DNA of 64,000 nucleotides from a virus (IMGVR_UViG_3300009181_000073:1593-65592), one strand, 5' to 3'. Positions 4,922 to 45,423 are shown, numbered from the stretch's first letter. Program-made: numbers and translations. Notes: generated by a model not told the origin, from the letters alone.

Positions 4922-5180
4922 GTGAACTACTCACAGGACAAGCCTGTGAGCTTCTAAAGAGTTTGTCTCTAGAACTTTAAGCACTTCACTGAAAATTACC
5001 GCTGTTAAACCAGTTGGTTTTATATTCTCTCCATGCTCGTAATCGTTCGTTCCGAACGATATCGGAAAAATTAATTAATCCGATAATTTTAATTATTATG
5101 CGAAATATGTTTTTTTTAAATGATTTAAAATGAATCGCATTCATCCCACAGGACGAGCCTGTGGGTTTTCTGCTCATGCA
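4922..5180 (-). mobile_element. non-autonomous IS200/IS605 mini-element (259 bp) retaining the omegaRNA region
   Basis: Left-end and right-end hairpins identical to those of the tnpB element at 44067-45423; TTTAT at 5181-5185; ends in TTCAC. Confidence 0.9.
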
Positions 5181-5188
5181 ATAAAAAT

Positions 5189-5217
5189 ACTATATCAGTA
5201 TAATATCTCAAAGTCAA
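5189..5217 (-). promoter_or_regulatory. sigma70-type promoter reading into the mini-element
   Basis: TTGACT-N17-TATAGT. Confidence 0.7.
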
Positions 5218-5223
5218 TAGTCT

Positions 5224-5472
5224 CTATTGTAGTTTTACAAACTGTCGAATATAGGCTTTGTGTATGTTGATGATACCAATAATGCCATTTGATATCAGTA
5301 CCTTGATTGTATAGAGATCAATAACAATATCTTTTTTCTTGAACGATAAAACCAAAAAAATATCTTGATGACTCAACAATCCATTGGTCCATTTGCCATC
5401 ATTATCATACAATGTCCAGCCTGTATCTTTTCCAGGCCATCGATATAATTTTCCTATCTCAAAACCATTCAT
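5224..5472 (-). CDS. GKLY-family small protein
   Basis: EIGKLYRW ... KVLISNGIIGII. Confidence 0.75.
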   Translation of the reverse strand: MNGFEIGKLYRWPGKDTGWTLYDNDGKWTNGLLSHQDIFLVLSFKKKDIVIDLYTIKVLISNGIIGIINIHKAYIRQFVKLQ

Positions 5473-5478
5473 TTTTAG

Positions 5479-5670
5479 CTATTTCGCTTTATTTTTTGTG
5501 AAATAAGAAATACCATAAAGAATTAATCCAGAAAAGATAAGAACACCATTTAGCACAGACCACCATGCTAGCTTCCACCACAAACGACTATAATATACGG
5601 CAGCAAATCCATAAATCACATTAGCCGCCATCCATAAATGATAGCTGATTTTCTGCAACTTTGTTTGCAT
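5479..5670 (-). CDS. small membrane protein
   Basis: Two hydrophobic segments. Confidence 0.6.
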   Translation of the reverse strand: MQTKLQKISYHLWMAANVIYGFAAVYYSRLWWKLAWWSVLNGVLIFSGLILYGISYFTKNKAK

Positions 5671-6089
5671 TATTTTGGTGCCTTCTTCTTCATGATAATA
5701 CGATTGCTTACTGGTGCAGCAGGTTCAGACTTTTTCTCTTCTACCGGCTTTGAATCAACTGCAACCTCAACAGGTGATTCAACAGGTTTTGGAGCCTCTA
5801 CAATGACAGCAGCTTCTGCTACCACTGCTTGTGTCTCGGTAACTTTGGAAGCCTCTACAGGAGCTTCCAGAGGCTTTGCGGCATAAGATTTGATAGACTG
5901 AAATAAACCGTATGAATTACATGCTTCAATTAGAAAAGTAGAAGCAATATAAGCAATAACACCGCTACTAACACCAATGATTAAAGGACGTACACCATTA
6001 AACAAAAAATGTAGTATAATGGCAATAATAACCGAAGTCAATGCCGTAATCGCTATCTGATAACTTGATTTAATAACACTTTTTTCCAT
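5670..6089 (-). CDS. membrane protein with acidic/Pro-rich tail
   Basis: Two TM segments then a low-complexity tail; AAGG RBS before ATG 6089. Confidence 0.65.
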   Translation of the reverse strand: MEKSVIKSSYQIAITALTSVIIAIILHFLFNGVRPLIIGVSSGVIAYIASTFLIEACNSYGLFQSIKSYAAKPLEAPVEASKVTETQAVVAEAAVIVEAPKPVESPVEVAVDSKPVEEKKSEPAAPVSNRIIMKKKAPK

Positions 6090-6292
6090 TTTATTTTCCT
6101 TTAGCAAGAACTATTCCTAGTTTTCTTCTTTGTAAATACCTGACTCTGCAAAAAACATTAGCAGACCCAGAAGAACACCAAATGGAACAAATCCAATCAG
6201 AATAATATTCGTAATCATTTTATTTTAAACCTTTTTAATAATGAGCGTTATCCGTGGTATGCGCTCCCCACCATCTAGTCAACCTAGTAAAA

Positions 6293-6526
6293 TCAGTGAA
6301 TGATCTTGTCGATGCTCTCAACGTGCTTTGGACGACCCCGTGAGGTCTTCAGCAGATGAGCAGATACCCGAACCTGAGTACCCTCCTCCGTGGAAACAGT
6401 CAGAGGTGCCACACAAGATACAAATACCTTGTCACCAGCCTTCAGGACAGGATCGTATCCTCCAAAACGAACATCCTCCAGAACAACCGCATGAACGCCA
6501 ACCTTGAGAGATGAAGAAGTAGTCAT
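6293..6526 (-). CDS. hypothetical protein with RGRPK (AT-hook-like) motif
   Basis: RBS and upstream TTGACA promoter. Confidence 0.6.
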   Translation of the reverse strand: MTTSSSLKVGVHAVVLEDVRFGGYDPVLKAGDKVFVSCVAPLTVSTEEGTQVRVSAHLLKTSRGRPKHVESIDKIIH

Positions 6527-6611
6527 TTTTTTGTTTTCCTTTTCTGTTTCGGGCCGTTGATGTATCTGTTTTACCAGCTTCCGTCGTCTTTGTCAACCAG
6601 TTCTTTTACTA

Positions 6612-6935
6612 TCAGTAGTATCGATCTTGCTCAGACCTTTCAACACATTCATCATGAAAATCCTCAATTAGCATATCATAAAGCTCTTCATCCGTTTTGC
6701 CGCTATATTCCAGTACGTCAGTGAAATCTAGAATAGGCCATTCACCATCATCCTTGTCCACAGCAAAAGCATGCGTAATAATAATTTCTGGATGAGAGAT
6801 ACGCTTATGAGAAGGATATAGCGGATAATTTACATGATATTCAATTTCGATTGAATATCCATCAACCACAAAAACCTTCTGATAGATATTGGCGTAGCTC
6901 TCTGGAGCATTACCGAAATTAATAAGTGAGTTCAT
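6612..6935 (-). CDS. hypothetical protein
   Basis: Acidic ORF with GGAG RBS. Confidence 0.6.
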   Translation of the reverse strand: MNSLINFGNAPESYANIYQKVFVVDGYSIEIEYHVNYPLYPSHKRISHPEIIITHAFAVDKDDGEWPILDFTDVLEYSGKTDEELYDMLIEDFHDECVERSEQDRYY

Positions 6936-7000
6936 TGTTATTCTCTCCCTTGATAGGATTGTTATAATAGAGTTTTCCAATATTAAGGTTTTTCATAAAA

Positions 7001-7261
7001 TTACTCCCACCAGCGATCTCCTTTAAAATAACTCACTTGGATCTCTGTAATCTTGCTGCCTTTATAATACCCCTTGTTGACTTTGAATCCATTGGATTCC
7101 AATAGCAACTCTCCTGATAAACGATTGTTGATTGTATCAAATTCCAGGTAAATCATAGATTTCGGGCCATATGTCTCGTTACTAAAATCTTTGTGGGTTT
7201 TAGGAACAATCGCCCCAGGAATATTCTTGACAACTTCAAATAATGCTTTTCTGGATTTCAT
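7001..7261 (-). CDS. hypothetical protein, leaderless
   Basis: TTGACT-N17-TAAGAT 6 nt before ATG. Confidence 0.65.
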   Translation of the reverse strand: MKSRKALFEVVKNIPGAIVPKTHKDFSNETYGPKSMIYLEFDTINNRLSGELLLESNGFKVNKGYYKGSKITEIQVSYFKGDRWWE

Positions 7262-7292
7262 CAGTGTATCTTATCGTTTTTGCGGCAAAAAG

Positions 7293-7832
7293 TCAAATTG
7301 GTTCTGCTGAAGTCTGTCTCAATCCAGAATACTTCACCCATTCAGGAATACCTCGAATAATCCTGTCTTCGACAAGCATGTCAAAAATCTTTTCTATGGC
7401 ATTGTCTTGAATAAAAAAGCCAAAACTGTCTTGAACGAAGTTTTCGTATTTTCTATCTTTCTCTAGATAAAAACCATAAGCAAACTGGTTTAACTGAGCT
7501 AAACAACCGGGAATAATCCAAGAAATATCTGGCAAACCAATTGCACATTTGAGGTTTGCACCTGCGAGGTTTGCACCAGTGAGGTTTGCACCAGTGAGGT
7601 TTGCACCTGCGAGGTTTGCACCTGCGAGGAATGCACCAGTGAGGTTTGCACCAGTGAGGTTTGCACCTGCGAGGTTTGCACCTGCGAGGAATGCACCAGT
7701 GAGGTTTGCACCAGTGAGGTTTGCACCGGAGAGGTTTGCATGGGTGAGGTCTGCACGGGTTCCTTGATTGCCTTTGGTTGAGAGCCAAAGCTTATGAGAA
7801 TCCAGAATATCTTTTAGTTTAGCTGCTTCCAT
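7293..7832 (-). CDS. pentapeptide repeat protein (paralog 3)
   Basis: [10 protein letters not shown] repeats with a 60-bp internal duplication; shared caps. Confidence 0.95.
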
Positions 7833-7880
7833 GAATCGAAGCTATCAAATCAAAAAATATACGTCAATAACAATAGCCAA

Positions 7881-8099
7881 TCAATTAATCTTTTGAATAT
7901 TACTAGGATGTATGTATACATAGCCAACCCTACCATCACCAACAAGAATTTTTAAACAATTATGCGGCAAAATCTCAATCAAACAAAAAATGTCATCTTC
8001 ATCAATAATTCCATTGTCGAAACCGTGAGCCACAATATCAAGCCACAAACAAATGTGGTCATACTCTTTAACTTGATATAATTTGCCAATCTCTAACAT
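7881..8099 (-). CDS. GKLY-family small protein
   Basis: EIGKLYQV ... KILVGDGRVGYV. Confidence 0.75.
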   Translation of the reverse strand: MLEIGKLYQVKEYDHICLWLDIVAHGFDNGIIDEDDIFCLIEILPHNCLKILVGDGRVGYVYIHPSNIQKIN

Positions 8100-8396
8100 T
8101 TACTCTCCTCCATTAACCAAAACAAATCTATCATCATACATGGGATGAACCATTATCGTTCCAATAATACCAGCAGATGTTAAAATATTAATACTATACA
8201 CAGTACCAACACAAGTCGGTGATGCCAAAATCATAAAAATCTCTTCTGCAAAAAGATAATATTGATTATTATCCCAATTATAATGCAAATCATCTGATTT
8301 TTCATGATCAATTGGATAAATAAAAAACCTATCCGGCTTACCATCTACTGTATAAACATGATGTGTACAAAGATTTCCTGGATTTAATGCAATCAT
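8100..8396 (-). CDS. GKLY-family small protein (divergent)
   Basis: NPGNLCT ... NILTSAGIIGTI. Confidence 0.65.
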   Translation of the reverse strand: MIALNPGNLCTHHVYTVDGKPDRFFIYPIDHEKSDDLHYNWDNNQYYLFAEEIFMILASPTCVGTVYSINILTSAGIIGTIMVHPMYDDRFVLVNGGE

Positions 8397-8677
8397 TTTT
8401 TTGCCTTAACAAGTTTTACCCTACCACTCTGGAAAAATATATAACCAACTATACCTTTGGCCGTCATCAACTTCAACCTTATTACATCAATACCCATCAT
8501 ATCTTTAACCGGAAAAGATTCCAAAATCATAAAAACATCACCCATGCCGATTTGATCAATTTTCTTAGAAAAGATATCATAAAAATCATCCTTGACAGCA
8601 ACACTCTTCGCTGGACTACTCTTCGCTAATTGATATAATCCTCCAGATATTAATCGTTTTTTAATGGGTTTAATCAT
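8393..8677 (-). CDS. GKLY-family small protein
   Basis: ISGGLYQL ... KLMTAKGIVGYI. Confidence 0.7.
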   Translation of the reverse strand: MIKPIKKRLISGGLYQLAKSSPAKSVAVKDDFYDIFSKKIDQIGMGDVFMILESFPVKDMMGIDVIRLKLMTAKGIVGYIFFQSGRVKLVKAKK

Positions 8678-8679
8678 GG

Positions 8680-8919
8680 CTATACCGCCTCGTGAATACA
8701 CGATCTGTGAACGTAAGTCCAACCAATAGAACCATCATCAGTCAAAATCTTCAACCTGATAGAGAATGGATCTTCAAAAGTATCCAATAAAAGAAATATA
8801 GAATTTCTATAAATTATTCCACATAAATCATTATTACGACTTCCGTCAGTCAAATACCATTTACTAGCAATTCCCTCCCCGTCAATTCTATAAAGCTTCC
8901 CTGGAATAATATCTAGCAT
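8680..8919 (-). CDS. GKLY-family small protein
   Basis: IPGKLYRI ... KILTDDGSIGWT. Confidence 0.75.
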   Translation of the reverse strand: MLDIIPGKLYRIDGEGIASKWYLTDGSRNNDLCGIIYRNSIFLLLDTFEDPFSIRLKILTDDGSIGWTYVHRSCIHEAV

Positions 8920-9233
8920 AATTTAAGCTCCTCTACCAATTCAAAGAATTCGTAATGTCCAGAAGAATATTTAAACCATCCAATAACCCCAGCATCAGTC
9001 AAAACTTTAATCCAATGTTCAAACTCATTAAATTCATTAACAGTAGCAATATCACTGAAAATTTCAAGAACCATAAAAGTATCATTCTCATACAACTTAT
9101 TGGTTTTTTCATCCAAATTGTTGATGCCAGCAAACAAAACCCACCACCATTCATCATATTCCATTGGCAAAGGATTGCGGCAAACATATAATTTACCTAC
9201 CTTAAATCCAGTTAAACTATTTCCGTTACTCAT
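8913..9233 (-). CDS. GKLY-family small protein
   Basis: KVGKLYVC ... KVLTDAGVIGWF. Confidence 0.75.
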   Translation of the reverse strand: MSNGNSLTGFKVGKLYVCRNPLPMEYDEWWWVLFAGINNLDEKTNKLYENDTFMVLEIFSDIATVNEFNEFEHWIKVLTDAGVIGWFKYSSGHYEFFELVEELKLC

Positions 9234-9501
9234 CCGTTAACTCCTCTAACCAAGCTGGCTCAATCCTGAACCATCCAAATAATCCCTTGCCAGACAATAC
9301 CTTTATCCATATCTTTCTTCTCACAATCTTACAAGGCTTTCCAATATCTAGCAACATAAAACTTTCCCTAAGAAACAATATATTATCCTTGTCAATTTGA
9401 TAATGTCGATTGTATTCATGATCAGAATTAGTCACCAAATAAAAGAAATCATGGTAACTTCGATCAATAAATTGATATAACTTACCAATAACCAATCTCA
9501 T
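9226..9501 (-). CDS. GKLY-family small protein
   Basis: VIGKLYQF ... KVLSGKGLFGWF. Confidence 0.75.
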   Translation of the reverse strand: MRLVIGKLYQFIDRSYHDFFYLVTNSDHEYNRHYQIDKDNILFLRESFMLLDIGKPCKIVRRKIWIKVLSGKGLFGWFRIEPAWLEELTDE

Positions 9502-9740
9502 ACAGTCTCAACCAATTGTAAATCATTACAATCGTACTTCAAAATATATCCAACAACCCCATCGCTCGTCAAAATCTTTAGCCATTTTGTTGAGCCGTAT
9601 TCTTTATCTAACTCACCAAGAAATAAAACAATGTCATTAAGCTGGAGATTTCCAATACGTTCCCCTAATTTTCCATCATCATCACTAAGAATACTTCTAG
9701 TAGATACAGAAGTATCCATGTATAATTTACCAATGATCAT
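9498..9740 (-). CDS. GKLY-family small protein
   Basis: MIIGKLYMD ... KILTSDGVVGYI. Confidence 0.75.
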   Translation of the reverse strand: MIIGKLYMDTSVSTRSILSDDDGKLGERIGNLQLNDIVLFLGELDKEYGSTKWLKILTSDGVVGYILKYDCNDLQLVETV

Positions 9741-9976
9741 ATTGCCTCTACCAATTGCCAATTATTACAATCGTAATTCGAAACATATCCAACAATCCCA
9801 TCACTCGTCAAAATCTTTAGCCATGTTGTTTGATAAAATTTCGGATTCTTACCAAGAAACAAAACAATATCATTTTGCCGCAATGTACCAATATATTCTC
9901 CTAATTCTCCAGCATTATCACTAATAATGCTTCTAGTAATCACAGAAGTAACCATGTATAATTTACCAATAATCAT
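9737..9976 (-). CDS. GKLY-family small protein
   Basis: MIIGKLYMV ... KILTSDGIVGYV; close duplicate of 9498-9740. Confidence 0.75.
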   Translation of the reverse strand: MIIGKLYMVTSVITRSIISDNAGELGEYIGTLRQNDIVLFLGKNPKFYQTTWLKILTSDGIVGYVSNYDCNNWQLVEAI

Positions 9977-9977
9977 T

Positions 9978-10223: not shown

Positions 10224-10266
10224 CCAATGATGATATCATGAAATATTGCGGCTGTCAAAAGGATCA

Positions 10267-11076
10267 TTAACCTTTCCAGCGATTGCTTTTAGACATATTA
10301 GCTTTTGCTTCCAAAGGCTGTAAATTATCTAATGCCCAACAAGCTTTAAATGCTGGATGATCCATTGAATCATATTTGAACCATGACTGTGGCTCAATGT
10401 GATCTATATGCCAATAAGAGCCATAGTTTTCCCATGACATCTCTGGTGTAAATCTCTGCTCAAGATGGAGCTTTAATTGCTCTGCGGTATATCCTACCAG
10501 GGTTTGCCATCCAGCTTTACATTTACTTAAATTTCTTTGCTTTAATGACTTACTAAGAAAATTACTCATATTTTCTCTTAGCTTGAACTGGGGATCTTTT
10601 TTAAGCCTTTCACGTTTATAAACCCTGTGTCGAGATCTAATTTTTTCTTTGTTGTTATTGGAATATTCTTTTTTATTTGCCGCAATATCTTCTTTGTTTT
10701 CATTGCGGTAATTCTTTTGATATTCTCTAATGGAATCTTTATTACTCTCACGAAATTTCTTTAATCGTTCTTTCTCTTTTTCTATGTTTTCTAAACTATA
10801 TTGTTTCAGCCTTTCCCGCTCTTTATCAACCCATTGTTGATTATTTTTATTTTCTTTGCGCCTTAATTTAGACTTCTCTGCTATTGCCTCTTTGTTTTTT
10901 ACATAATAGATTTTATCAGCAGCATTACTTTTATCTTTGTTTAATTCCGCATATATCTTTTGTTTATTCAAAATACATTGTTTGCATTCCGGTCTAATAC
11001 CATCCCGACATCCCTTGGCCTTGTAATATTCTTCTGATTCTTTTTCTATATTACAACCAGTGCATATCTTTTTCAT
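10267..11076 (-). CDS. HNH homing endonuclease
   Basis: N-terminal CxxC pairs, charged helical linker, WHIDHIEP ... NLQPL..KAN.SK. Confidence 0.85.
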   Translation of the reverse strand: MKKICTGCNIEKESEEYYKAKGCRDGIRPECKQCILNKQKIYAELNKDKSNAADKIYYVKNKEAIAEKSKLRRKENKNNQQWVDKERERLKQYSLENIEKEKERLKKFRESNKDSIREYQKNYRNENKEDIAANKKEYSNNNKEKIRSRHRVYKRERLKKDPQFKLRENMSNFLSKSLKQRNLSKCKAGWQTLVGYTAEQLKLHLEQRFTPEMSWENYGSYWHIDHIEPQSWFKYDSMDHPAFKACWALDNLQPLEAKANMSKSNRWKG

Positions 11077-13620: not shown

Positions 13621-14373
13621 TCAACTAGCTTTCTTCAATCCAGAATACTTTACCCAATGGGGAATATTCCTGATAATCCGATCTCCTACTAGCATATCGA
13701 ATGTCTTTTCTTCGGAATTATCTTGAATGAAAAAACCAATGCCATCTTGACTAAAGTTTTCGTATTTATCCTCTTTTTCTAGATAAAATTCATACTTAAT
13801 CCTATTCAATTGAACCAAACAGCCGGGAATAATCCATGAAACATTTGGCAAACCAGTTGCATCACGGAGATATGCATATTGTAGGTTTGCACCTTCGAGG
13901 TTTGCACCCGTGAGGTCTGCACCAACGAGGTCTGCACCACGGAGGTTTGCACCACGAAGGTCTGCACCTTCGAGGTTTGCATCACGGAGGTTTGCACCAT
14001 TGAGGTTTGCATTAATGAAACTTACATATTCAAGGTTTGCACCACGGAGGTTTGCACCTGATAGGTTTGCACCACGGAATCCTGCACAATAGAGGATTGC
14101 ACCCGTGAGGCTTGCACCCGTGAGGTTTGCACCCGTGAGGGTTGCACCAAGGAGGTTTGCACCATCGAGGTTTGCACCTTCGAGGTTTGCACCACGGAGG
14201 CTTGCACGAGTGAGGTTTGCATCCTTGAGGTTTGCACGTTCGAGGTCTGCGCCACGGAGTTGTGCCCCTTCAAGATTTGCACTCTTGAGATATGCCTGTG
14301 ATCCTTGCATCCCACTGGTTTCAATCCAAAGTTTGTGTTGCTCCAGAATCTGGTTTAGTTCAGACTGTTCCAT
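13621..14373 (-). CDS. pentapeptide repeat protein (paralog 4)
   Basis: Longest repeat tract of the four; shared caps; TTGACA-N17-TAATCT 6 nt before ATG. Confidence 0.95.
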
Positions 14374-14413: not shown

Positions 14414-14656
14414 TTATAGCTTTACAAAATACGTCTCAAGAAGTCTTTCTGCACAACAAATATATCCAACCAATCCTTCGCTGGTCAATAAACGAAATCC
14501 ATGACGTCCATATTTCATGCTATATTGTTCTAATATCATGACGATTTGATTATCAACATCGGACAAGTAATCATCAGGATCAATGACACAATCTCTGGAT
14601 TTGAAAAGACACGAACAGTGTTGAAACATATACATTTTACCAGTTTGAATAATCAT
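14414..14656 (-). CDS. GKLY-family small protein
   Basis: QTGKMYMF ... [12 protein letters not shown]. Confidence 0.7.
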
Positions 14657-15239
14657 TGCGGCAAACACTCCTCAAAATCATCTATGAAATCATCGAAAAT
14701 AGAAATATAACCAACAAAACCATGTTGGTTAATAATTTTACAAACGCATCTTGGATAACGATTATATCCATGCCAAATTAACATGAAAATATCATCAGGC
14801 CATAAACAATCAATAGGCTTAATGTTTGAAATACTGTCGTAATTACTATATCCAGTTATTCCATTCTCTTTATTGTATGAGCAGAAAACCCACAGGCTCG
14901 TCCTGTGGGATGAATGCGATTCATTTTAAATCATTTAAACAAAAACATATTTTGCATAATAATTAAAAACATCGGAGCAATTAATTTTTCCGATATCGTT
15001 CGGAACGAACGATTACGAGCATGGAGAGAATATAAAACCAACTGGTTTACCAGCGGTAATTTTCAGTGAAGTGCTTAAAGTTCTAGAGACAAACTCTTTA
15101 GAAGCTCACAGGCTTGTCCTGTGAGTAGTTCACTGTAGTATTTTCCAATCGTAAAATGATAATAGTATTTGTCTGTACCATCTTCATACTTACGATCTTT
15201 TGCCAACCATTTATATAACTTACCGTTTTCAAATTTCAT
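14653..15239 (-). pseudogene. GKLY-family gene interrupted by a mini-element
   Basis: Removing 14874-15133 gives in-frame MKFENGKLYKW...TIGKYY|NKENG...KIINQHGFVGYI...CLPQ*. Confidence 0.85.
14874..15133 (+). mobile_element. non-autonomous IS200/IS605 mini-element (260 bp) retaining the omegaRNA region
   Basis: Follows TTTAT (14869-14873), ends in TTCAC, near-identical to 4922-5180. Confidence 0.9.
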
Positions 15240-18420: not shown

Positions 18421-19392
18421 TTGTTAACCAATTTTTTCGAATATCATATTTCATTCATAGTTATTAACATGGTTAATATAAATAATTTTAAGTGCGATCA
18501 GTGTAGTAAAAATTTTATCAGAGAAGTTAGACAAATACGTAAGAATAGTAAAAATTGTTTCTGTAGCAAACAATGCGGCTATAATCACAGCCGCCACTCA
18601 ATAGAATTACCATGCGGCAATTGCAAAAAACCAACCGTTCGCTTGCGTGCAGTAGTGAATTCTTCAAAGAGTGGATTCATATTCTGTTCTCAATCTTGCT
18701 CAGCAATCTATAGCAATACGCATAAAAAACAAGGCACCAGAAGATCAAAACTTGAAACATGGCTAGAAGAACAATTAAGAGAAAAATATCCAACGCTGGA
18801 TATCTTGTGCAATCAAAAGAATGCTATCAACTCTGAACTAGATATCCACTTTCCAGCACTAAAACTTGCTTTTGAATTAAATGGAATATTCCATTATGAA
18901 CCAATCTATGGCCAAGATAAGTTAAATAAAATACAAAACAATGATAATAGAAAATATCAAGCTTGCATAGAAAATAAAATAGAACTCTGTATCATTGATA
19001 CCTCAAAGTTTGGCTATTTTAAAATATCAGGAGCAATGAAGTTTCTGGATATCATCACAAATATCGTTGACAATAACATAACAAAACATATTGCGGCAAA
19101 CATTGAAATTAACTCTACCGATATCAATAGAGGATTCATTCAGCCAAAAATAAAAAAAGAAATAACCTGCTCCACTTATAATCTTATGGAGAAAGCTGTC
19201 TCTTGGAATAAATTAATAGAAACAGAAAACTTAACCAAAGCAGATATCGCTCGGCTAGAACAAAAGTCAAGAGCATATATCACCAATGTAATGAAATTAT
19301 TAGAACTACCACAGGATATCCAGAAAGCACTGTTAGATAAATCCTATCCCAAAACTTCCTTTAAAAATATCCTCAATCAATTCATAAAATAA
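18421..19392 (+). CDS. putative homing endonuclease (Zn ribbons, Vsr/DUF559-like nuclease, ParB-like HTH)
   Basis: CxxC/FCSxxC repeats; ELDIHFP.LKLAFELNGIFHY; C-terminal LTKADIARLEQKSRAYITNVMKLLELP. Confidence 0.7.
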   Translation: MLTNFFEYHISFIVINMVNINNFKCDQCSKNFIREVRQIRKNSKNCFCSKQCGYNHSRHSIELPCGNCKKPTVRLRAVVNSSKSGFIFCSQSCSAIYSNTHKKQGTRRSKLETWLEEQLREKYPTLDILCNQKNAINSELDIHFPALKLAFELNGIFHYEPIYGQDKLNKIQNNDNRKYQACIENKIELCIIDTSKFGYFKISGAMKFLDIITNIVDNNITKHIAANIEINSTDINRGFIQPKIKKEITCSTYNLMEKAVSWNKLIETENLTKADIARLEQKSRAYITNVMKLLELPQDIQKALLDKSYPKTSFKNILNQFIK

Positions 19393-19430
19393 AACCAGCA
19401 AACCCTTCTGGATATTGCTGGCTCTTGTTG

Positions 19431-19504
19431 CGTACCCACCTAGACTTGAACTAGGGACATTCTACTTAACAGGCAGACGCTCTAACCGACTGAGCTATGG
19501 GCAC
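19431..19504 (-). tRNA. tRNA-Asn(GUU)
   Basis: Cloverleaf GTGCCCA/TGGGTAC, anticodon arm TCTGC-CTGTTAA-GTAGA, TTCAAGT T loop; no encoded CCA. Confidence 0.9.
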
Positions 19505-19554
19505 ATGAAACATGTTATAATCTATTTTGTAATGCGTATTTTGTATAACCTATA

Positions 19555-20031
19555 TTATTCTTTATGATGTATTTCTCTATGACAATTAGCACACAATATC
19601 AAACATTTATCTAATTCTATTTTTAGAGAATCCCATTTCCTAGAACTACCATCCCCAATACCAAAATCCTTTTTCGTTGGATCAATGTGATGAAACTCTA
19701 ATGCTGATATGCATCTATTGTAACTGCATTTCTCACAACTGCCACCCTTGTATTCAACACACCTTTTTTTCAAATTCTTTCTGGCTGATGTTGTGCAACA
19801 TGCACCACACTTCGTCATGCGATCTCCTTTATGCTTGTAAATAAATTCTTTGCCGCATGTAGAACATATCTGATGCTTGCCACGCATTGTCTCTTGATCA
19901 ATATCTTTTTTGGTATTGTGATTACCAAAAGGAGAACAAGATAAACAATATTTTCTGGATTGTAAGTTTCTATGCTTACCGTCAATCTTAATGTTTTTAA
20001 TCTCGGAGTTACACTTAATACAAATCTTCAT
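19555..20031 (-). CDS. HNH endonuclease
   Basis: CEKC...ALEFHHIDP...LCANCHREIH. Confidence 0.85.
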   Translation of the reverse strand: MKICIKCNSEIKNIKIDGKHRNLQSRKYCLSCSPFGNHNTKKDIDQETMRGKHQICSTCGKEFIYKHKGDRMTKCGACCTTSARKNLKKRCVEYKGGSCEKCSYNRCISALEFHHIDPTKKDFGIGDGSSRKWDSLKIELDKCLILCANCHREIHHKE

Positions 20032-20873
20032 AGAGTTTCATTTTGATTGGCAAGTGCACTTTCTTGTGCTTTAATCCATTTGCGTATGGTATTATCACTA
20101 ACACCATATTTTTTCCCAACAGCAACATAAGTGCTATTGATAAGATCTTGTTTTAACTCTTCTAGAGATGGTCTAGATACTTTCCGCTGATATAAACTAT
20201 AGCAAGCAAAACACCGTTTGGAAGAGTAGGATATTTCTTTCCCACATTCACATTTTCTAGCATCAGCTTTAATCTTCTCTTTAATCTCTAAAAGAGGAAG
20301 TTTCATTATTTCTAATAGTTTATTTAAACAAATACTAACATCTTTACAGACTTCAGAAGCAGTAAATCGTATTACTCTCCAGCCTATAGATTCTGTCCAT
20401 TTATCTCTACGTTCATCAATTCTTTTCACATTATCTGTTAAGTGTAGTTTGCCATCAATTTCCACATCAATTCTTTCTTCTGGAAATGCAAAATCAAACT
20501 GATATATGCTCATTGGTTTTTCTGGCTCAAAATTTGTAAGACCATACTCTTTCAATGCTTTTTCGAAAATAAGTTCTGGTATAGATCTTTTACTAGAATG
20601 ATTCAACCGATAAGGAACTTTTTCTGGATGTAATTTAAGATACGCTGTGCGTCTTGCAGATATTTTCTTTTTTGTTTCTTCAGTATGTTTCCTTGGATTC
20701 TTAATAGCGGCTAATCTTAGTGCTTCTGTTCTTGAACGGAATACAATATCTCCTCTTTTTTTAGCTTTATATAGTGCCGCTACTCTAACACCATATTTTT
20801 GAGTTATTTCTTTTTGAGTTAGCCCACTCTCATAGTCTGCTTGTATTAAATTCCAATCATATTTTTTCTTCAT
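20028..20873 (-). CDS. putative homing endonuclease (HTH, NUMOD3-like, DUF559-like)
   Basis: HTEETKKKIS; FDFAFPEERIDVEIDGKLH...DERRD; terminal HTHs. Confidence 0.75.
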   Translation of the reverse strand: MKKKYDWNLIQADYESGLTQKEITQKYGVRVAALYKAKKRGDIVFRSRTEALRLAAIKNPRKHTEETKKKISARRTAYLKLHPEKVPYRLNHSSKRSIPELIFEKALKEYGLTNFEPEKPMSIYQFDFAFPEERIDVEIDGKLHLTDNVKRIDERRDKWTESIGWRVIRFTASEVCKDVSICLNKLLEIMKLPLLEIKEKIKADARKCECGKEISYSSKRCFACYSLYQRKVSRPSLEELKQDLINSTYVAVGKKYGVSDNTIRKWIKAQESALANQNETL

Positions 20874-20917
20874 ATTTATAAGTAGAGTATCAGACTCTGA
20901 TTATAAAATTATTTTCG

Positions 20918-20991
20918 TGGGATCGGTGAGACTTGAACTCACGTTATTCACATATTAAAAGTATGGTGCATGGCCACTATGCTACGATCCC
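20918..20991 (-). tRNA. tRNA-Lys(UUU)
   Basis: GGGATCG/CGATCCC acceptor, CATA-CTTTTAA-TATG anticodon arm, GTGAG-TTCAAGT-CTCAC T arm. Confidence 0.85.
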
Positions 20992-29660: not shown

Positions 29661-30124
29661 ATGATGATACAAAAATTGGAATCCCATCAAAGCAAGCAGC
29701 AATGATGCTATCTCAACTTGCTGATATGGACTATGATCAAGTTGGAATCATTCATGATCTTGGACTCGGTATTGCTTCTACAATGGAAACAATTGCAGCA
29801 ACTATAGAAAATCCACCAAAGAAAATCAAAAAAGGTTGCCAAGTAATTCAATTGGGAAGCCAACTGTTTGTACCAATCAGAGATCTTAAAAAATCTTTGG
29901 AAGATGGTGAATTGGATTTGGAATCATACTTGCGTAAACTAAATGCAATCACAGATGATCTTTGTGAGATTACAGAAAAAAATCATGCAGTTATGGCAAA
30001 TCCAAATATACGAAATCATATGAAACGATTAGCAAATACAATCGTTATCGGCGTTGAGGCTGGATCTATTCTGAATACTATGTTTGGAATTATTGATAGC
30101 GAAGATTTGATTCATTCTGATTAG
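29657..30124 (+). CDS. hypothetical protein
   Basis: ATGA-coupled start MNDDTKIG. Confidence 0.65.
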   Translation: MNDDTKIGIPSKQAAMMLSQLADMDYDQVGIIHDLGLGIASTMETIAATIENPPKKIKKGCQVIQLGSQLFVPIRDLKKSLEDGELDLESYLRKLNAITDDLCEITEKNHAVMANPNIRNHMKRLANTIVIGVEAGSILNTMFGIIDSEDLIHSD

Positions 30125-31604
30125 GATGTAGAATATCCTTTGAGTCTGCTTTCTTTTTAGTTTCTGATGGTTTAAGATTATCCATAGACCAATAAGATTT
30201 AAATCCTGGATGATTTGGTGAATCGTATATAAAACATGATTTTGGTTTTATATGTTTTATATACCAATAAGATCCATAATTTTCCCAACTCATTTTTTCA
30301 TCAAATAATTTTTCCAAATGCTCTTTCAGTTGGATTGTTGAATACCCAATTAAAGACTGCCATTTTGCTTTGGATTTCAGTAGATTATCATTTTTTAATG
30401 ATTCTCGCACAGCATGGCTCATACATTTTCCTAATCGAAAATGTATGTCTGTTTTGCTTTTTTCCCTTTCAGCCTTATTTCGTTTAGCACGAACTTCTGG
30501 ATTGGATAAATATTCCTTCTGCCGAAGCATAACTTTATCTTTATTTAACTTATAATGGTTTCTTTGTCTTACTAATTCTTTATCTTTATTTTTCTCTCTA
30601 TATACCTTGTTTTGTAATTTTATCTTTTCTGCATTTCTCTGCCCGTGTTTTATTCTCACGTTTCGAACATGCTCTTTATTTTTAGGATTTGATATATAAC
30701 GAGCGAATGCAATCGCATGGACGCATTTTTTACAATTTACGCTTTTTTTATTATCTCTTTTCAAAAGGAAATCTATTCCACATGTTTTACATTTTCTTTC
30801 AAGGGACGGAACAAGACCATGTTTCTCCTTATACCTTTTCATGATCATTGATTTAATACATTCCTTGCAGTTTATATTTTTTGAGTCATTCCGGCGAATA
30901 TTGTATTTTGAACCACAGTTTTGACATATGCGCTCTATACAAACATTGGTCTTACCACGTGTCTCATCCAATATATTAATCATCTTCTTACGAAACTCTG
31001 GATCTTGCCAACGATTCTTCAATCTCTCGGATGCCAAAATACTTGCTTCTGATTCTGCAAGACTTTCTATTTGATTTTTACGATATGTTGGATCTTTCCA
31101 ACATGCCTGCTGTGCTTTACTCTGTTTCTCTCTAACTGAGTCCGATGACATTATTTCATGCATTTTCTGCCGATAGCTATGATTGCCCCAGCGTTCCTTG
31201 CTTTGCTTTGATAAGAACTGTTTAGTCTCTTCTGGAGTCATTGAAAAACATGAACGCTCTTTGGCTTCGGTCTTTTGTTTGAAGTTATAGCATTGACCTT
31301 GCTTGTCGTAATATTGTGCTATCCACCACTCTTCCCTATGATTTCTCTGTTCCTTTGATGAGTCTTCCATAACCTCAAGGATATAGAATTCAATGAAGTC
31401 ATCATGTCCAAGCTCTTCCTTGCACTTGGCAAAGTCATTTCTAAGAAATCGATTGCAATGCTTACCGTTCAGCAAAGATCTAACATGATCACGCCAACGA
31501 GATTTGAACTGTTTGGCTTGTCCGATGTAGATCCGATTATTATGAGTGTTTAGGATTTTGTAAATCCCAGGCTTGAGTAAATTTTCTTCGTCATGTAGCT
31601 TCAT
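30090..31604 (-). CDS. GIY-YIG homing endonuclease with degenerate C-terminal HNH-like domain
   Basis: GIYKILN...IYIGQA...RW..H; C-terminus parallels that of the HNH at 10267-11076. Confidence 0.8.
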   Translation of the reverse strand: MKLHDEENLLKPGIYKILNTHNNRIYIGQAKQFKSRWRDHVRSLLNGKHCNRFLRNDFAKCKEELGHDDFIEFYILEVMEDSSKEQRNHREEWWIAQYYDKQGQCYNFKQKTEAKERSCFSMTPEETKQFLSKQSKERWGNHSYRQKMHEIMSSDSVREKQSKAQQACWKDPTYRKNQIESLAESEASILASERLKNRWQDPEFRKKMINILDETRGKTNVCIERICQNCGSKYNIRRNDSKNINCKECIKSMIMKRYKEKHGLVPSLERKCKTCGIDFLLKRDNKKSVNCKKCVHAIAFARYISNPKNKEHVRNVRIKHGQRNAEKIKLQNKVYREKNKDKELVRQRNHYKLNKDKVMLRQKEYLSNPEVRAKRNKAEREKSKTDIHFRLGKCMSHAVRESLKNDNLLKSKAKWQSLIGYSTIQLKEHLEKLFDEKMSWENYGSYWYIKHIKPKSCFIYDSPNHPGFKSYWSMDNLKPSETKKKADSKDILHPNQNESNLRYQ

Positions 31605-38763: not shown

Positions 38764-38765
38764 AA

Positions 38766-39026: not shown

Positions 39027-39057
39027 ACAGTTAGTATGTCAAATATTCAAACAAAGG

Positions 39058-39342: not shown

Positions 39343-39348
39343 TTTATA

Positions 39349-39789: not shown

Positions 39790-39805
39790 TAGATATTCTC
39801 CAGTA

Positions 39806-40514: not shown

Positions 40515-40519
40515 ATAAT

Positions 40520-40558
40520 AATAGGAAGCCAGTGTTGTTTTATGGCTTCCTATTTTTT
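40520..40558. terminator. intrinsic terminator-like hairpin
   Basis: AATAGGAAGCCA ... TGGCTTCCTATT with flanking A/T tracts. Confidence 0.55.
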
Positions 40559-40561
40559 AGA

Positions 40562-41782
40562 TTAAGCTTTGGCTTTACGTGCTGCAACAGCAGCAGCAGT
40601 AGAACCAGCTGGACGACCCCGAAGTGCAATTGATTTCAATTCTTTACGAATTTCTCTTACTTCTGGGTTTTGATCAATAAAATCTCCAAGAGAGTTAAAG
40701 TTTGTGCGTTTATCCATCTCTGCTTTAAATCCTTCATAAAGCTCACTAATGATCTCATCAATATAACGATCTGAATCTTCTGGATTATTTGCCGTGTGAA
40801 TAATCATATCCAGCACATCCTGACCTTCTCCAGCCATACGTGTAATCACATCATTGAAAACATCAATCTCTTGACTACCAAGGCTTTTTACACCTTGTTT
40901 ACGGAGCTCATCAGCAAAATCTGCAATACCTTCTGCAAATGCTTTTTGATGGTTTTGCTCGTCATCTTCACCAACTCCCTTAAATGCTTTTACCATCGAA
41001 TCGGAAAACATTGATGAATATTTGTCAACAGAACTATTAACAATTTTATTTAGACGGGTAAGCATATCCTTTGCATCCATCTTTGCATCTTGATCTGCAT
41101 TTGGATTTTTAAGGAAATCACTTAGAAGTGCAAGCATACCTTCATCACCAGAAACATGCTTAAGAGCACTCTCAATACGATTTAGAACTGATTGCTTGGT
41201 GGTTGTTTCAGTTGGATCAGCCGCAAGCAAATCTGCAATCGTTGTCTTGGCCTCTTCTGCACCTTTAACAGTGTCATAAGTACGAGCACCTTCTCCTGGC
41301 TCTTCGCCCTCTGATTTATCAGCCATGGCAGCTTGTAGCTGGCCATAATCAATGTGTGTGCCACCAAACTCCTTGGCATCCTTATAAGCCTTAACCATTT
41401 TAAATAATGGATCAGCATCCTTAGAGAAATTTGAATTAGCAAAAATCCAGCGGTTAAGATTTAGTTGCTCAACAAAATCATCTGGGCTTTTTGAATCTTC
41501 ATAAAGATCCATGACTTTCTTCATGTCTTCTTGGTCAAGCTTGAGACTTGACGATGGAGAAACAATGTAGGTTTTTAGAAACCAGCGGATAAAATCATTT
41601 TTAGATGGTTTCTTGGAAATTTCTTGTGTCTTTGTTCCAGACTCAAACCCATCCCATACCGCATTGTAATTCGAAGAACGATAAACTTTCTCGTCTTTCT
41701 TTTCTTCTTCGGCTTCTGCTAGCAAACGAGATACGAATTCATTGCGGACCATTGTGCGAATTTTTTCACGAAGTTGTGCCAT
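40562..41782 (-). CDS. hypothetical acidic helical protein
   Basis: 406-aa ORF with AAGGA RBS. Confidence 0.8.
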   Translation of the reverse strand: MAQLREKIRTMVRNEFVSRLLAEAEEEKKDEKVYRSSNYNAVWDGFESGTKTQEISKKPSKNDFIRWFLKTYIVSPSSSLKLDQEDMKKVMDLYEDSKSPDDFVEQLNLNRWIFANSNFSKDADPLFKMVKAYKDAKEFGGTHIDYGQLQAAMADKSEGEEPGEGARTYDTVKGAEEAKTTIADLLAADPTETTTKQSVLNRIESALKHVSGDEGMLALLSDFLKNPNADQDAKMDAKDMLTRLNKIVNSSVDKYSSMFSDSMVKAFKGVGEDDEQNHQKAFAEGIADFADELRKQGVKSLGSQEIDVFNDVITRMAGEGQDVLDMIIHTANNPEDSDRYIDEIISELYEGFKAEMDKRTNFNSLGDFIDQNPEVREIRKELKSIALRGRPAGSTAAAVAARKAKA

Positions 41783-41841
41783 TGTATTTATTCCTTTGTA
41801 AAAGTCTTTGTGTTAATTATGTTTCCAGGAAACTTTGTCCA

Positions 41842-42219
41842 TCAAACCCATTCGTGGATCTTGAGATTGTCATCAGTCATGACACGATCATCTTCATGAT
41901 TAAATCCTCTGCCGTCCATCAAAATATACATCCATGCATCCTCTTCAAAAGCTTTAAGCTTTACAAGCTCACGCCTATAAAAACTACCATTGCTCTCTAG
42001 CCGATCCAATGTGTTCAATGTCTTATCATCAATACGATATAATTCCCCAGAAATATGAAATCCATCCTTAGAATGGATTACTCCAGGAAAACTACACAAT
42101 GAAATCATTTTAAAATCTGCGGAACTTGTCATGTCAGAACCACAGTATTCACTGGATTGAAGCAGCCTATTGTTACCATAGCCATTTTTAAGACTGCCAT
42201 ATACAAATACGTTATGCAT
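41842..42219 (-). CDS. gamma-glutamylcyclotransferase (AIG2-like) family protein
   Basis: VFVYGSLK, GELY, LDRLE, YRR motifs. Confidence 0.85.
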   Translation of the reverse strand: MHNVFVYGSLKNGYGNNRLLQSSEYCGSDMTSSADFKMISLCSFPGVIHSKDGFHISGELYRIDDKTLNTLDRLESNGSFYRRELVKLKAFEEDAWMYILMDGRGFNHEDDRVMTDDNLKIHEWV

Positions 42220-42287
42220 TATGTCCCTCTGTTCTCAGTTAGATTACAGAGGAACTGTAACACGAATGCATAACCACCGTCAATAGT

Positions 42288-42893
42288 TCAGCTTAACCAG
42301 CTTTTCTTTTCTTTTTCGCCCTCAAGCCAATGCTGCAAACAACGTGGTTCATATGTTTCTTTGCCACCAATCAATACTTGATCCGTGCTGGATGCTGATA
42401 ACTTCCTAAATGTTCGTGTGGCATCTTCGCCGCATACAGAACAAATTCCTGAAAGCTTATAAACAACATCGGCAATCGAAAGAAGATAAGGCATAGAACC
42501 AAATGGAATACCATTACTATCCAAATCTAATCCTACAGCAACAACATCAATACCCTTTTCCAAATATGTTAATATTGAATTATTACAAAGATTAGTAAAG
42601 AATTGTGCCTCATCAATCAGCACAATATCAATACCCTCTAAATCTTCATTGGAAAGAACATCATTTACATCCAGCAAACGAACACTATGACCTGTTAGCT
42701 TTTTAAGCGATGTTCCATCGTGAGACACAATATCATCAATACTATATCGTTTATCAATGGTAGGCTTTACAACTATTGCTTTTTTATTCTCTTCAAGAGA
42801 AGTTTCTAATTCAGCAATTAAACTAGTCGTTTTTCCGCAAAACATCGGTGCAGCATATACAGTAAGCGTCCCTGTTTTTTTATTATTAATCAT
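42288..42893 (-). CDS. tdk: thymidine kinase
   Basis: PMFCGKTT, IDEAQF, GLDLD...PFG, CSVCG, YEPRC. Confidence 0.92.
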   Translation of the reverse strand: MINNKKTGTLTVYAAPMFCGKTTSLIAELETSLEENKKAIVVKPTIDKRYSIDDIVSHDGTSLKKLTGHSVRLLDVNDVLSNEDLEGIDIVLIDEAQFFTNLCNNSILTYLEKGIDVVAVGLDLDSNGIPFGSMPYLLSIADVVYKLSGICSVCGEDATRTFRKLSASSTDQVLIGGKETYEPRCLQHWLEGEKEKKSWLS

Positions 42894-43195
42894 GAATTAT
42901 ATGTAAACTCCAAAATTAAGTCTGGTCCTTTGTCATATCTTACCACTGTTACATCACGATATTCAACAGATTTCATAAGAGTTCCAGATAAATCATACTG
43001 TCTAACAATAAGACTCGTAAACCTAGTACCAATAACAGCAGATGTTAATGGATTATAAGCAACAAGAGGTCTTGTTAAACATAAAGAAACTTGACGAGAA
43101 TCTGTTCCAATGAATTTAGAACGAGAACTGTCAAACTGATATAACTCACTGCTGTTCGGTAAACCTACCGTAAAAGTATAATAATGATCTTTCAT
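42890..43195 (-). CDS. hypothetical protein
   Basis: ATGA-coupled to tdk. Confidence 0.55.
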   Translation of the reverse strand: MKDHYYTFTVGLPNSSELYQFDSSRSKFIGTDSRQVSLCLTRPLVAYNPLTSAVIGTRFTSLIVRQYDLSGTLMKSVEYRDVTVVRYDKGPDLILEFTYNS

Positions 43196-44066
43196 AGCAT
43201 ACTATATTACAAAGATCATTCAACTATGTTTACAGGCATAGTCCATCCTTTATAAGATTTAATCTTACCACTTGAAAGATTGATCATGCTTTGTTTTCTT
43301 AATCCATTCACTTTACAGAATTGACTAATATTCTTAAAAGTAACCTTATGGCCTTCTGGATTTATCATTGTATATGATTTGGCTATGCTGTCATATCTTG
43401 CTGCTTTTCTTTCAAATATCATTTCTTTTGTAATTCCATAAGCAGTCCAGCCCTTATAGTACCATTGAGTTCCTTTTGCTAAATTATATAACTGTGTACG
43501 CTCCATGTTATTCTCTCTAGAGAAATTTTCTAAATTATTAAACTCTACTACATTCCCTATAGGAGATAGTATTTTATACACTTTGCCGCTATGTGGTTTA
43601 TCAACAAATATACGATTCTTTACCACCCATGATCCACAACTCTTTCTGACACCTGATAAAAGTTTAGATATATGAGATTGATTAACCACATGTTTCTTGG
43701 CAAAAACTGAAGGATTAAAAACTTCTTCTTCAATTCCATTCTTTCTATTTACTATAATTCTACTAGAGAATTCCATATCAGCCATTCGCCATTGCCTATA
43801 ATCCAGTACTTCTTTGGTTACTAGTTTTTTAATCTCATTGTGATCTAAATTATATTTGCCGCAAAACCTTATCATATCCTCTACAACATATTCTTTGCCG
43901 TCTGGACCAATAAACCAATCACGGTCTTCTCTATATTTTTTTTTATTAAACTTCTGGCTTGCAGGAATAACAGCAATCTGATAGTGATTGTATCTCTGCT
44001 CATTGCCATATTCAGCAAATAGTTTGTTTAGATAATACTGTTCCCTTTCCATCCTAGAGACTTTAT

Positions 44067-45423
44067 TGCATGAGCAGAAAACCCACAGGCTCGTCCTGTG
44101 GGATGAATGCGAATAATTTAGAAAAATAAAACTTATGTTATATTTATCATCAAGCATAAAGTAATGGCACTACAAAACAAAACATATCAATACAGAATCT
44201 ATCCAAATTCAGAACAACAGCAGTTGTTCTCGAAAATGTTTGGATGCTCTCGTTTTGTTTGGAATTTCTTTCTTAACAAAGAAAAAGAACATTTTCTAAA
44301 AAATAAAGAAAAAATCGAAGAAGAAAGAACAAAAAACTATCTTTCTTACTATGACAATGCAAAAGCTTTAACTCTTTTAAAACAAGAACCAGAAACCAAG
44401 TTTCTGAAAGATGCAAACTCGCAAAGTTTGCAAACAACACTTAAAAATTTAGAGATTGCCTATAAAAGATTCTTCAAAAAGCAAAGTGGGTTTCCAAATT
44501 TCAAAAAGAAATTTGGAAAACAATCTATTTGCATTCCACAAAGCCTTTCAATCGAAAATGGAATGCTCCATATTCCAAAGTTTAAAACCGGAATCCAAAT
44601 CAAACAACACAGACCAATCAAAGGCAGAATAACAACTTCAACCATTACCAAAACACCAACCAACAAGTATTTTGTTTCTATTTCCGTGGAAGAAACTATT
44701 CATAACTTACCAAAAATAAACAATGCTGTTGGGGTTGATCTTGGAATCAAGAGTTTTGCTTTTTTGTCTAACGGAGAAGAGATATCGAATCCAAAATATC
44801 TTGTTAAGTATTCAAACCAACTAAAGAAACAGCAGCAGCAGCTTTCAAGTAAATTGAAAGGTTCAAATAGAAGAAACAAACAAAAGCTAAAAGTAGCAAA
44901 AATTCACGAAAGAGTTACCAATCTCCGAAAAGATTTTCAACATAAACTTTCTTTGAAATTAGTTCACGAAAACCAAGTGATTTGTATAGAAGATTTAAGT
45001 GTTAAAAACATGTTGAAAAACCACAACTTATCAAAAGCTATTCAAGATAGTTCTTGGAGTAGTTTTGTTAATTTGTTAGAATACAAGTGTAAATGGTACG
45101 GAAGAACATTAATCAAAGTTGATAGATTTTTTCCAAGTTCTAAAACTTGTTCGGACTGTGGCTACATCAATCAAAATCTAAAACTCAAAGATAGAGAATG
45201 GGTTTGTAAAGGTTGTGGAGTAGTCCATCAGAGGGATTGGAATGCATCAAAAAATATTCTTAAACAAGGATTAAACCTTGTTGATAGATCGTTCGGAACG
45301 AACGATTACGGGCATGGAGGAAACGTAAAACCAAGTGCAAACTTGGAAATTTCCGATGAAGTGCTTAAAGTTCTAGAGACAAACTCTTTAGAAGCTCACA
45401 GGCTTGTCCTGTGAGTAGTTCAC
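44067..45423 (+). mobile_element. IS200/IS605-family element, tnpB only (IS1341-like)
   Basis: Follows TTTAT; left hairpin CCCACAGG-CTCGT-CCTGTGGG, right hairpin CTCACAGG-CTTGT-CCTGTGAG; ends in TTCAC; no target duplication. Confidence 0.92.
44164..45414 (+). CDS. tnpB: TnpB RNA-guided nuclease
   Basis: N-terminal HTH; RuvC GVDLG, IEDL, RDWNA; Zn finger CSDC/CKGC; D-E-D triad intact. Confidence 0.95.
   Translation: MALQNKTYQYRIYPNSEQQQLFSKMFGCSRFVWNFFLNKEKEHFLKNKEKIEEERTKNYLSYYDNAKALTLLKQEPETKFLKDANSQSLQTTLKNLEIAYKRFFKKQSGFPNFKKKFGKQSICIPQSLSIENGMLHIPKFKTGIQIKQHRPIKGRITTSTITKTPTNKYFVSISVEETIHNLPKINNAVGVDLGIKSFAFLSNGEEISNPKYLVKYSNQLKKQQQQLSSKLKGSNRRNKQKLKVAKIHERVTNLRKDFQHKLSLKLVHENQVICIEDLSVKNMLKNHNLSKAIQDSSWSSFVNLLEYKCKWYGRTLIKVDRFFPSSKTCSDCGYINQNLKLKDREWVCKGCGVVHQRDWNASKNILKQGLNLVDRSFGTNDYGHGGNVKPSANLEISDEVLKVLETNSLEAHRLVL

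Follow-up and report, generated by a model that had tools for sequence, protein, structure and literature searches.

Among described systems, those closest to the locus reported here are ISDra2, with its RNA-guided nuclease TnpB, and the palindrome-associated transposable elements (PATEs) of the IS200/IS605 family. In ISDra2, an omegaRNA scaffold of 116 nt (-116 to -1) suffices and positions -231 to -117 are dispensable, according to the part of Nakagawa 2023 (PMC10097598) that deals with the scaffold, and the section of Nety 2023 (PMC10278001) on processing reports that TnpB trims the 5' end of its own transcript. PATEs were noted in Geobacillus stearothermophilus in the Meers et al. 2023 preprint (PMC10055086), whose Discussion states that they often encode omegaRNAs needing TnpB in trans, and a passage of the Zedaveinyte 2023 preprint describes another TnpB that works in E. 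coli with omegaRNA supplied in trans. Table 1 of a 2026 review (PMC13565253) lists 'transposon non-restorative homing' with 'coinfected phages/plasmids' as its targets; where the review takes up such homing, it regards the process as theoretical for phages and other homologous DNA. The idea of guides acting in trans is already in print in these parts of the two sources (PMC10055086; PMC13565253), and the locus described here is a clear natural example of the kind of arrangement proposed there. It lies in a 64,000-nt stretch of a large freshwater phage (hereafter the window), which corresponds to bases 1593-65592 of the 65,592-bp IMG/VR virus record IMGVR_UViG_3300009181_000073 (CheckV completeness estimate ~24%). 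In this window one TnpB-only element is accompanied by two protein-less derivatives of about 260 bp, mini1 and mini2. We consider it fairly probable that the three copies form one IS200/IS605 lineage in which the mini RNAs would guide the resident TnpB to element-free sites, resulting in homing. Supplements and some key papers aside, our literature search found no paper on guide-only minis in a phage.

The copies and the gene of the full element are the following:

44067..45423, + strand: full IS200/IS605-type TnpB-only element, 1357 bp, both ends common to the minis
44062..44066, + strand: TTTAT insertion motif of the full element (predicted target-adjacent motif), abutting the left junction
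44164..45414, + strand: tnpB gene, intact, 416 aa, with three Pfam domains
5180..4922, - strand: mini1, protein-less derivative, 259 bp, with TTTAT at 5185..5181
14874..15133, + strand: mini2, protein-less PATE-like derivative, 260 bp, with TTTAT at 14869-14873

A sequence-only reading of the window had proposed one TnpB element and two protein-less derivatives that share its left end and a right end of ~140 nt and carry AT-rich filler in place of the open reading frame (ORF), and alignment of all three loci bears this out. The first ~46-51 nt of the minis are common to full-length left ends, the last 136 nt of the full element (139 nt in the minis) are common to all right ends, and the ~70-nt AT-rich middle of the minis has no match in the full element. 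All three elements terminate on the right in TAGTTCAC, and TTTAT stands immediately 5' of each. Both ends carry subterminal imperfect palindromes without terminal inverted repeats, as is characteristic of IS200/IS605, and the hairpin stems of the left end (CCCACAGG and CCTGTGGG) and of the right end (CTCACAGG and CCTGTGAG) are present in every copy. A 23-nt motif and a 38-nt left-end stretch each occur three times in the window (0 expected for each, from shuffles in the case of the former), and a right-end 11-mer also occurs three times, compared with 0.61 expected. The longest ORFs inside the minis (51-63 codons) span hairpins and scaffold and have no tnpB counterpart, so that the minis consist of two ends with no protein gene in between, as PATEs do. 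Identity between mini1 and mini2 is 97%, whereas their identity to the resident right end is only 87%. The minis are one lineage of PATE-like, non-autonomous derivatives of the TnpB element. Mini1 is intergenic and has the orientation of the neighboring genes on both sides. The further copies that the sequence-only reading had suggested looking for were absent from the whole 65,592-bp record by BLAST, and a covariance model of the right end gave three matches of 160-167 bits in the window, with the next best at only 16.6 bits. On the opposite strand, the left-end hairpins (5145-5165, 14889-14909, and 44082-44102) are followed by a T-run and have a terminator-like score; they could stop antisense transcription exiting the element.

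The TnpB of the full element aligns end to end with ISDra2 TnpB (8h1j, 8exa; E ~1e-78) and matches the Pfam families OrfB_IS605 (2.5e-29), Cas12f1-like_TNB (2.4e-25), and HTH_OrfB_IS605 (1.1e-17). In a motif comparison for which we assumed the ISDra2 residue numbering, the RuvC-like D-E-D triad expected of an IS200/IS605 TnpB is in place (GVDLGIK, D192; CIEDL, E277; HQRDWN, D358), as is the zinc finger, with both CxxC pairs aligned (C329/C332 and C348/C351). We compared the gene with those of L057 and L058, which are identical to each other in the gene, and of L171. The ratio of nonsynonymous to synonymous substitution (dN/dS) is 0.09-0.11 over codons 1-370, which indicates that this intact TnpB is under purifying selection, and it reaches 0.6-1.2 in the final 46 codons, the part of the gene shared with the scaffold. 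Over the same boundary dS falls about ten-fold in the closest pair, window versus L057 (0.34 to 0.03), and from 0.59 to 0.34 in window versus L171. Because dS drops there while dN/dS climbs, the tnpB tail is constrained as nucleic acid rather than as protein, and the same relation is reported for the ISDra2 tnpB tail in the relevant part of Nakagawa 2023 (PMC10097598). Among INPHARED phages we found no close relative: DNA matches were to tnpB solely (65-69% identity), and the best helicase match, from a Microcystis phage, is 36% identical.

The region constrained in the tail of the gene is the one that the minis retain:

45285..45423, + strand: omegaRNA scaffold region of the full element; covariance model 167 bits, fold z-score -4.5; overlaps the last ~43 tnpB codons
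14992..15133, + strand: omegaRNA scaffold of mini2; covariance model 160 bits, fold z-score -4.2
4922..5063, - strand: omegaRNA scaffold of mini1; covariance model 161 bits

The covariance model and an RNAalifold consensus were built on 11 right ends (four full-length copies and seven minis). RNAalifold gave five helices with 37 pairs, of which eight are changed on both sides and almost none broken. The covariation check on the scaffold variants was also run within the minis, on nine ~260-bp copies and a named structure of 55 pairs. In these, 98.8% of cells are paired, and seven pairs show two-sided changes compared with 1.5 +/- 1.0 in shuffles (none of 500 reached seven) and at most one in slid controls. 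The loop of the internal hairpin varies within the mini type from UUUA to CUUG in three copies, and in the mini1 scaffold a single C-to-A change weakens the internal hairpin, with one pair broken. The covariance model also matches the 3' ends of tnpB genes that are only 41-55% identical in protein. At the Rfam gathering score, no omegaRNA family was found in the window, the only matches being two tRNAs. The retained right end is nonetheless the omegaRNA scaffold region: by position it covers the tail of tnpB and the right end, next to the flank expected to be the guide, and its secondary structure is conserved with covariation. RNAalifold, the pairing within the minis, and the dS drop agree that it is structurally constrained, as the sequence-only reading had supposed.

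The locus resembles ISDra2 in that the last part of tnpB and the right end together encode the guide RNA, and in the layout of the scaffold: the first stem is followed by internal stems, then by a terminal hairpin whose 4-5-nt loop lies at about -21 to -17, and finally by GUUCA at -6 to -2, the place where ISDra2 has a pseudoknot strand. Candidate partners for such a pseudoknot are two invariant GAA stretches, neither of which can be assigned because the 3' strand is itself invariant. The lengths also correspond, in that the ISDra2 scaffold is 116 nt, the first stem here begins at -114, and one natural derivative (described below) keeps exactly 116 nt. The elements differ from ISDra2 in their insertion motif (TTTAT instead of TTGAT), in an extra variable hairpin within the loop of the first stem, in their phage host, and in the lack of tnpA in the same element. 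With the Geobacillus PATEs, as far as the Meers preprint describes them, they share being protein-less, having IS200/IS605 left and right ends, occurring in several copies, and being mobilized in trans. The present elements differ from them in residing in phage genomes, and comparison of the copies adds deletion derivatives of independent origin, covariation among the minis, and relatives with empty alleles.

The insertion sites are equally uniform. TTTAT abuts all 19 distinct readable left junctions of the element group (L197 was excluded because its boundary is unclear), and TTTAT is thus the insertion motif, as predicted. Insertion is 3' of this fixed motif and without target duplication, and excision is seamless: exact in-silico removal with TTTAT kept restores a 384-codon frame on the minus strand at the full element and a 114-codon frame on the minus strand at mini2. 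The affected genes and the predicted guides, which are the same three 16-nt right flanks that had been read from the sequence, are as follows:

43216..45700, - strand: GIY-YIG homing-endonuclease gene split by the TnpB element (N-terminal part 45700..45424, C-terminal part 44066..43216)
14653..15239, - strand: small 'GKLY' paralogue-family gene split by mini2, its frame regained on removal
45424..45439, + strand: predicted guide of the full element, inside the split GIY-YIG gene
15134..15149, + strand: predicted guide of mini2
4906..4921, - strand: predicted guide of mini1, covering AGGAG and the ATG of the gene 4909..4664

The N-terminal piece of the split endonuclease matches Pfam GIY-YIG (E 4.7e-8). 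As the TnpB element sits inside this gene, one selfish nuclease element has inactivated another, and the halves are still in frame. For each guide, the sole perfect match in the window is its own flank, preceded by TTCAC, and no match to the first 12 nt of any guide with up to two mismatches and a preceding TTTAT was found in the window. Occupied sites would be immune because TTCAC, not TTTAT, precedes the target, and the phage would be safe from its own guides since the window holds no TTTAT-flanked match, as the model requires.

Element-free alleles of the mini sites exist in a relative. A DNA run (X2) from a study other than that of the best holder of these sequences contains contigs from a relative strain, in which both mini sites are empty. 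At the mini1 site, position 4918 is joined to 5193 with 11 other letters between (skipping 4919-5192), and at the mini2 site 14858 is joined to 15136 with 17 other letters between (skipping 14859-15135). The converse case is L196, whose flanks are 97% identical to window positions 51003-52741 and which has a ~260-bp mini where the window is unoccupied; the equivalent window site (51640-51700, compared with L196:1040-1420) has no TTTAT and an indel relative to the flank of the mini. An empty allele of the TnpB-element site was not found by an IMG/VR search with the C-terminal endonuclease piece, which matched only the part reading out of the element's left end; records G001 and G002 are without flanks.

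Related elements were gathered from three scans. When IMG/VR was scanned for the hairpin core, 45 loci were found, 19 of which belong to the element group. The other 26 were discarded, as they all represent a single GC-rich coding context that is unrelated. Metagenome contigs, scanned specifically for the left end, yielded 14 loci, comprising five ~260-bp minis (L195 and L204 being one site), one 199-bp mini, one 587-bp derivative, four left ends of full TnpB-only elements, and three in which tnpA comes after the left end. Among 74 loci from 185,579 species genomes, only L132 and L171 carry the elements, and the others share just ~20-36 nt around the hairpin. The contigs of L132 and L171 are labeled as Candidatus Saccharibacteria metagenome-assembled genomes (MAGs), their flanks are phage-like with small unknown ORFs, and the insertion site of L171 is the same as in IMG/VR contig L046. 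They may be phage contigs binned into a MAG, and we draw no host from the label. In total, the ~260-bp lineage occupies nine distinct, unrelated sites (two in the window plus L008, L040, L202, L206, L196, L007, and L132), so that it shows the multiple copies, unrelated sites, and common target motif of PATEs.

Shortened forms also arose independently of this lineage. Lineage B (L045, the same as L199) is 199 bp long, of which 83 nt come from the left end and the remaining 116 nt, exactly, from the right end. It is related to L171/L046, and its 83 nt reach through the stretch homologous to the promoter-like site of tnpB. Lineage D (L203), 587 bp long, has lost two internal segments but still has 197 nt of the right end. 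Counting the ~260-bp minis, three of four independent shortened forms retain the whole scaffold, and the form found at many sites is among these three. The fourth, L006 (593-637), is a 44-bp element with TTTAT on one side and TAGTTCAC on the other. All it comprises is one chimeric hairpin, whose 5' side is left-end-like and whose 3' side is right-end-like, possibly the product of recombination between a left end and a right end.

A Y1 (HUH) TnpA, which IS200/IS605 elements would be expected to have, is lacking from the record: the search for a Y1 transposase (Pfam PF01797) gave no match in all 65.6 kb (~24% complete), which extends the earlier observation that the window has none. Such an absence is in keeping with a non-autonomous element and is compatible with membership of the family. 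A partner is present in a relative. L198 is a 1596-bp element with a divergent tnpA (153 aa, opposite strand; Y1_Tnp E 2e-28) and a different tnpB (386 aa); its left- and right-end hairpins are the same as here, but its terminus is TAATTGAC. Its host is a related 109-kb contig with minis and two tnpB copies 93-94% identical to that of the window, and the L198 TnpA is a credible source of transposase in trans. Another locus, L205, has a left end and a truncated tnpA remnant beside pentapeptide-repeat and 'GKLY' genes like those of the window. A 109,652-bp IMG/VR contig (L008/L044, L034/L037, L033/L038) is nearly mirror-symmetric, with elements and left flanks at x and 109,653-x, although the right flanks of its two tnpB copies differ. 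The symmetry suggests an assembly chimera through the repeat.

Taken together with what is known of ISDra2, this anatomy suggests how the three copies may work. Each mini comprises a left end with a TnpA-type hairpin, an AT-rich promoter-like stretch, and a complete scaffold ending in the right-end hairpin, and a Y1 TnpA acting in trans would have inserted all three elements 3' of TTTAT without target duplication. We infer four further steps, namely transcription, trans-loading, cutting, and homing. The mini transcript would run through the right end into the neighboring 16 nt; the resident TnpB would bind this RNA and trim its 5' end; and the complex would cut alleles reading TTTAT plus flank, that is, the element-free site, whether this had arisen by TnpA excision or lay on a co-infecting relative. 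Repair by recombination, with an occupied copy as template, would then restore or spread the element. Trans-loading of TnpB by the mini RNAs is plausible. Such homing would resemble that of phage homing endonuclease genes, in which an element-free co-infecting allele is likewise predicted to be cut and repaired by copying the element in. It would differ from them in that recognition is via an RNA guide and TTTAT rather than a protein, and in that one nuclease could serve several loci. Promoter-like sites are the following:

44117..44144, + strand: promoter-like site upstream of tnpB; TTTAGA, 16-nt spacer, TATATT, with TG before the second hexamer; 9/12 match
14934..14963, + strand: weak promoter-like site in the AT-rich spacer of mini2; TTTAAA, 18-nt spacer, AATAAT; 9/12 match

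The spacer of mini1 likewise has a promoter-like site with a 9/12 match, and CATAATAATTAAA within the mini spacer is invariant in all nine minis. Read-through could also supply mini1 RNA because mini1 lies in sense orientation between two genes.

Several observations weigh against guidance of TnpB by the mini RNAs. The promoter-like sites are weak consensus matches in AT-rich DNA, and the promoter scan made no call in lineage B at the counterpart of the tnpB site. Contigs from RNA libraries X19 and X20 cover both minis, but they run across the borders into other flanks, and as contigs they give no RNA ends, strand, or level and could reflect DNA carry-over. In X19 the depth over the minis is 15 and 44.5 compared with 0-1.9 in neighboring bins, a ratio greater than that in X2 DNA (~4-6-fold); as these are contig depths of multi-copy elements from different samples, we did not count the difference as expression. 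The mini-type scaffold differs from that of the resident element in the internal hairpin and one adjoining helix pair, and this internal hairpin occurs only in minis (six of six IMG/VR matches), so that compatibility with the resident TnpB is assumed. L007, L196, and L132 account for most of the two-sided changes seen among the minis, so exchange with full-length elements could have supplied them. The contrast between spacer and scaffold among the six closest minis rests on small counts of variable columns (scaffold 6/113, spacer 8/56, left end 3/45). L006, seen once, has no scaffold. The X2 alleles, moreover, would not be cuttable: at the mini1 site the motif is GTTAT and target position 3 is mismatched, and the allele at the mini2 site differs in most of the 17 nt within flanks that are ~97% identical. 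The supposition that element-free alleles of relatives serve as targets thus holds in part: such alleles exist, but the X2 relative is probably uncut because its two readable ones lack an intact TTTAT and matching target. Across the three sites for which we have them, diverged empty alleles fit either ordinary divergence or resistant alleles that survived a drive.

These points lead to the alternative that survives best, although we judge it unlikely, namely that the minis are ordinary TnpA-mobilized miniature elements whose scaffold is a passenger from the founding deletion, kept alike by youth of the copies and gene conversion and without RNA function. The sequence-only reading had taken the retained length as a sign of selection, and here the minis by themselves speak for the passenger account: the two in the window are one lineage, so they count as one deletion event, and the ~260-bp minis as a whole share one deletion architecture. 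The six closest also differ at few positions anywhere, the right end of L132 matches the resident full element at 99% identity, which shows that minis have either exchanged sequence with full elements or arisen more than once, and the 44-bp L006 shows that scaffold loss occurs and weakens the case for selection. That case acquires meaning only through the 199-bp and 587-bp derivatives, since a passenger would not be expected to keep at least 116 nt of right end in three independent deletions, one of them ending exactly at -116. Pairing in 98.8% of cells persists over nine dispersed copies, and the scaffold is no more variable than the TnpA-recognized left end. Gene conversion, moreover, cannot explain the upkeep of the mini-type hairpin, because no full-length IMG/VR element carries it.

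A second alternative, which we regard as improbable, is that the long right end serves transposition, its stems, as single-stranded DNA, being required or very useful when TnpA recognizes the end, excises the element, or selects a strand. In favor of this, the hairpin that closes the scaffold doubles as the TnpA-type right-end hairpin, single-stranded DNA would fold alike, and covariation does not separate RNA from DNA. In IS608, the ends required by TnpA are short subterminal hairpins and a few flanking bases. In the elements here, ~50 nt are enough for the left end, and L198, which bears tnpA, has no more than the terminal hairpin in common with these right ends (covariance score 32.6 versus 160-171 bits). 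The conserved stems also match the ISDra2 omegaRNA scaffold, as far as its description goes, in order and length. That the mini RNAs act in some other way, as TnpB decoys or as antisense or roadblock regulators of nearby genes, is most improbable: the mini1 flank includes both the start codon and the ribosome-binding site of the gene that follows, the full element and mini2 are antisense within genes, and PMC10705468 describes nuclease-dead TnpB relatives repressing genes, but the resident TnpB has all catalytic motifs and evolves as expected under purifying selection, the insertion sites are unrelated (nine distinct sites for the ~260-bp lineage), and nothing specific favors a decoy.

The surroundings of the elements are rich in repeats and other selfish genes. 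The 'GKLY' family (4435-5472, 14414-15239, and others) consists of small paralogues of ~80-110 aa with GKLY near the start and no family match; two of these genes flank mini1 and one is split by mini2. Five pentapeptide-repeat proteins (phrog_7713, phrog_923) are encoded at 2645-3286, 3319-3903, 7293-7832, 13621-14373, and 63382-63999, and run contigs join between their genes, indicating repeat-like behavior in assemblies. Positions 9507-9976 hold a 236-bp tandem duplication in two copies that are 81% alike, and the X2 relative contig skips 9615-9850, so it has one copy fewer. There is also a heavy load of other homing-type nucleases (18421-20873, 30090-31604, 51697-53016, and 10267-11076), assigned to HNH, endonuclease VII-like, and 'homing endonuclease' PHROGs, and two such genes adjoin tRNA-Asn (19430-19504) and tRNA-Lys (20917-20991).

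Returning to guidance of the resident TnpB by mini RNAs, a stronger form of this proposal can be put forward only tentatively, and we hold it to be possible rather than likely: the minis may be selected stand-alone guide genes, satellites of a single phage TnpB, by which one nuclease could drive or defend several loci at co-infection. Repeated deletions would in that case pare the transposon down to a left end, a promoter, and exactly the functional scaffold. The system supplies a compact TnpB with a TTTAT motif and natural scaffold variants. If the mini RNAs do load TnpB, it would be a natural system for asking whether a transposon nuclease can be exploited by guide-only satellites, and what minimal insertion sequence still yields a working guide gene, the natural 116-nt trim being the same as the engineered one of ISDra2. 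It would also represent a multi-guide, one-nuclease arrangement outside CRISPR, and would offer a test of whether RNA-guided homing, theoretical in the 2026 review, works between co-infecting phages.

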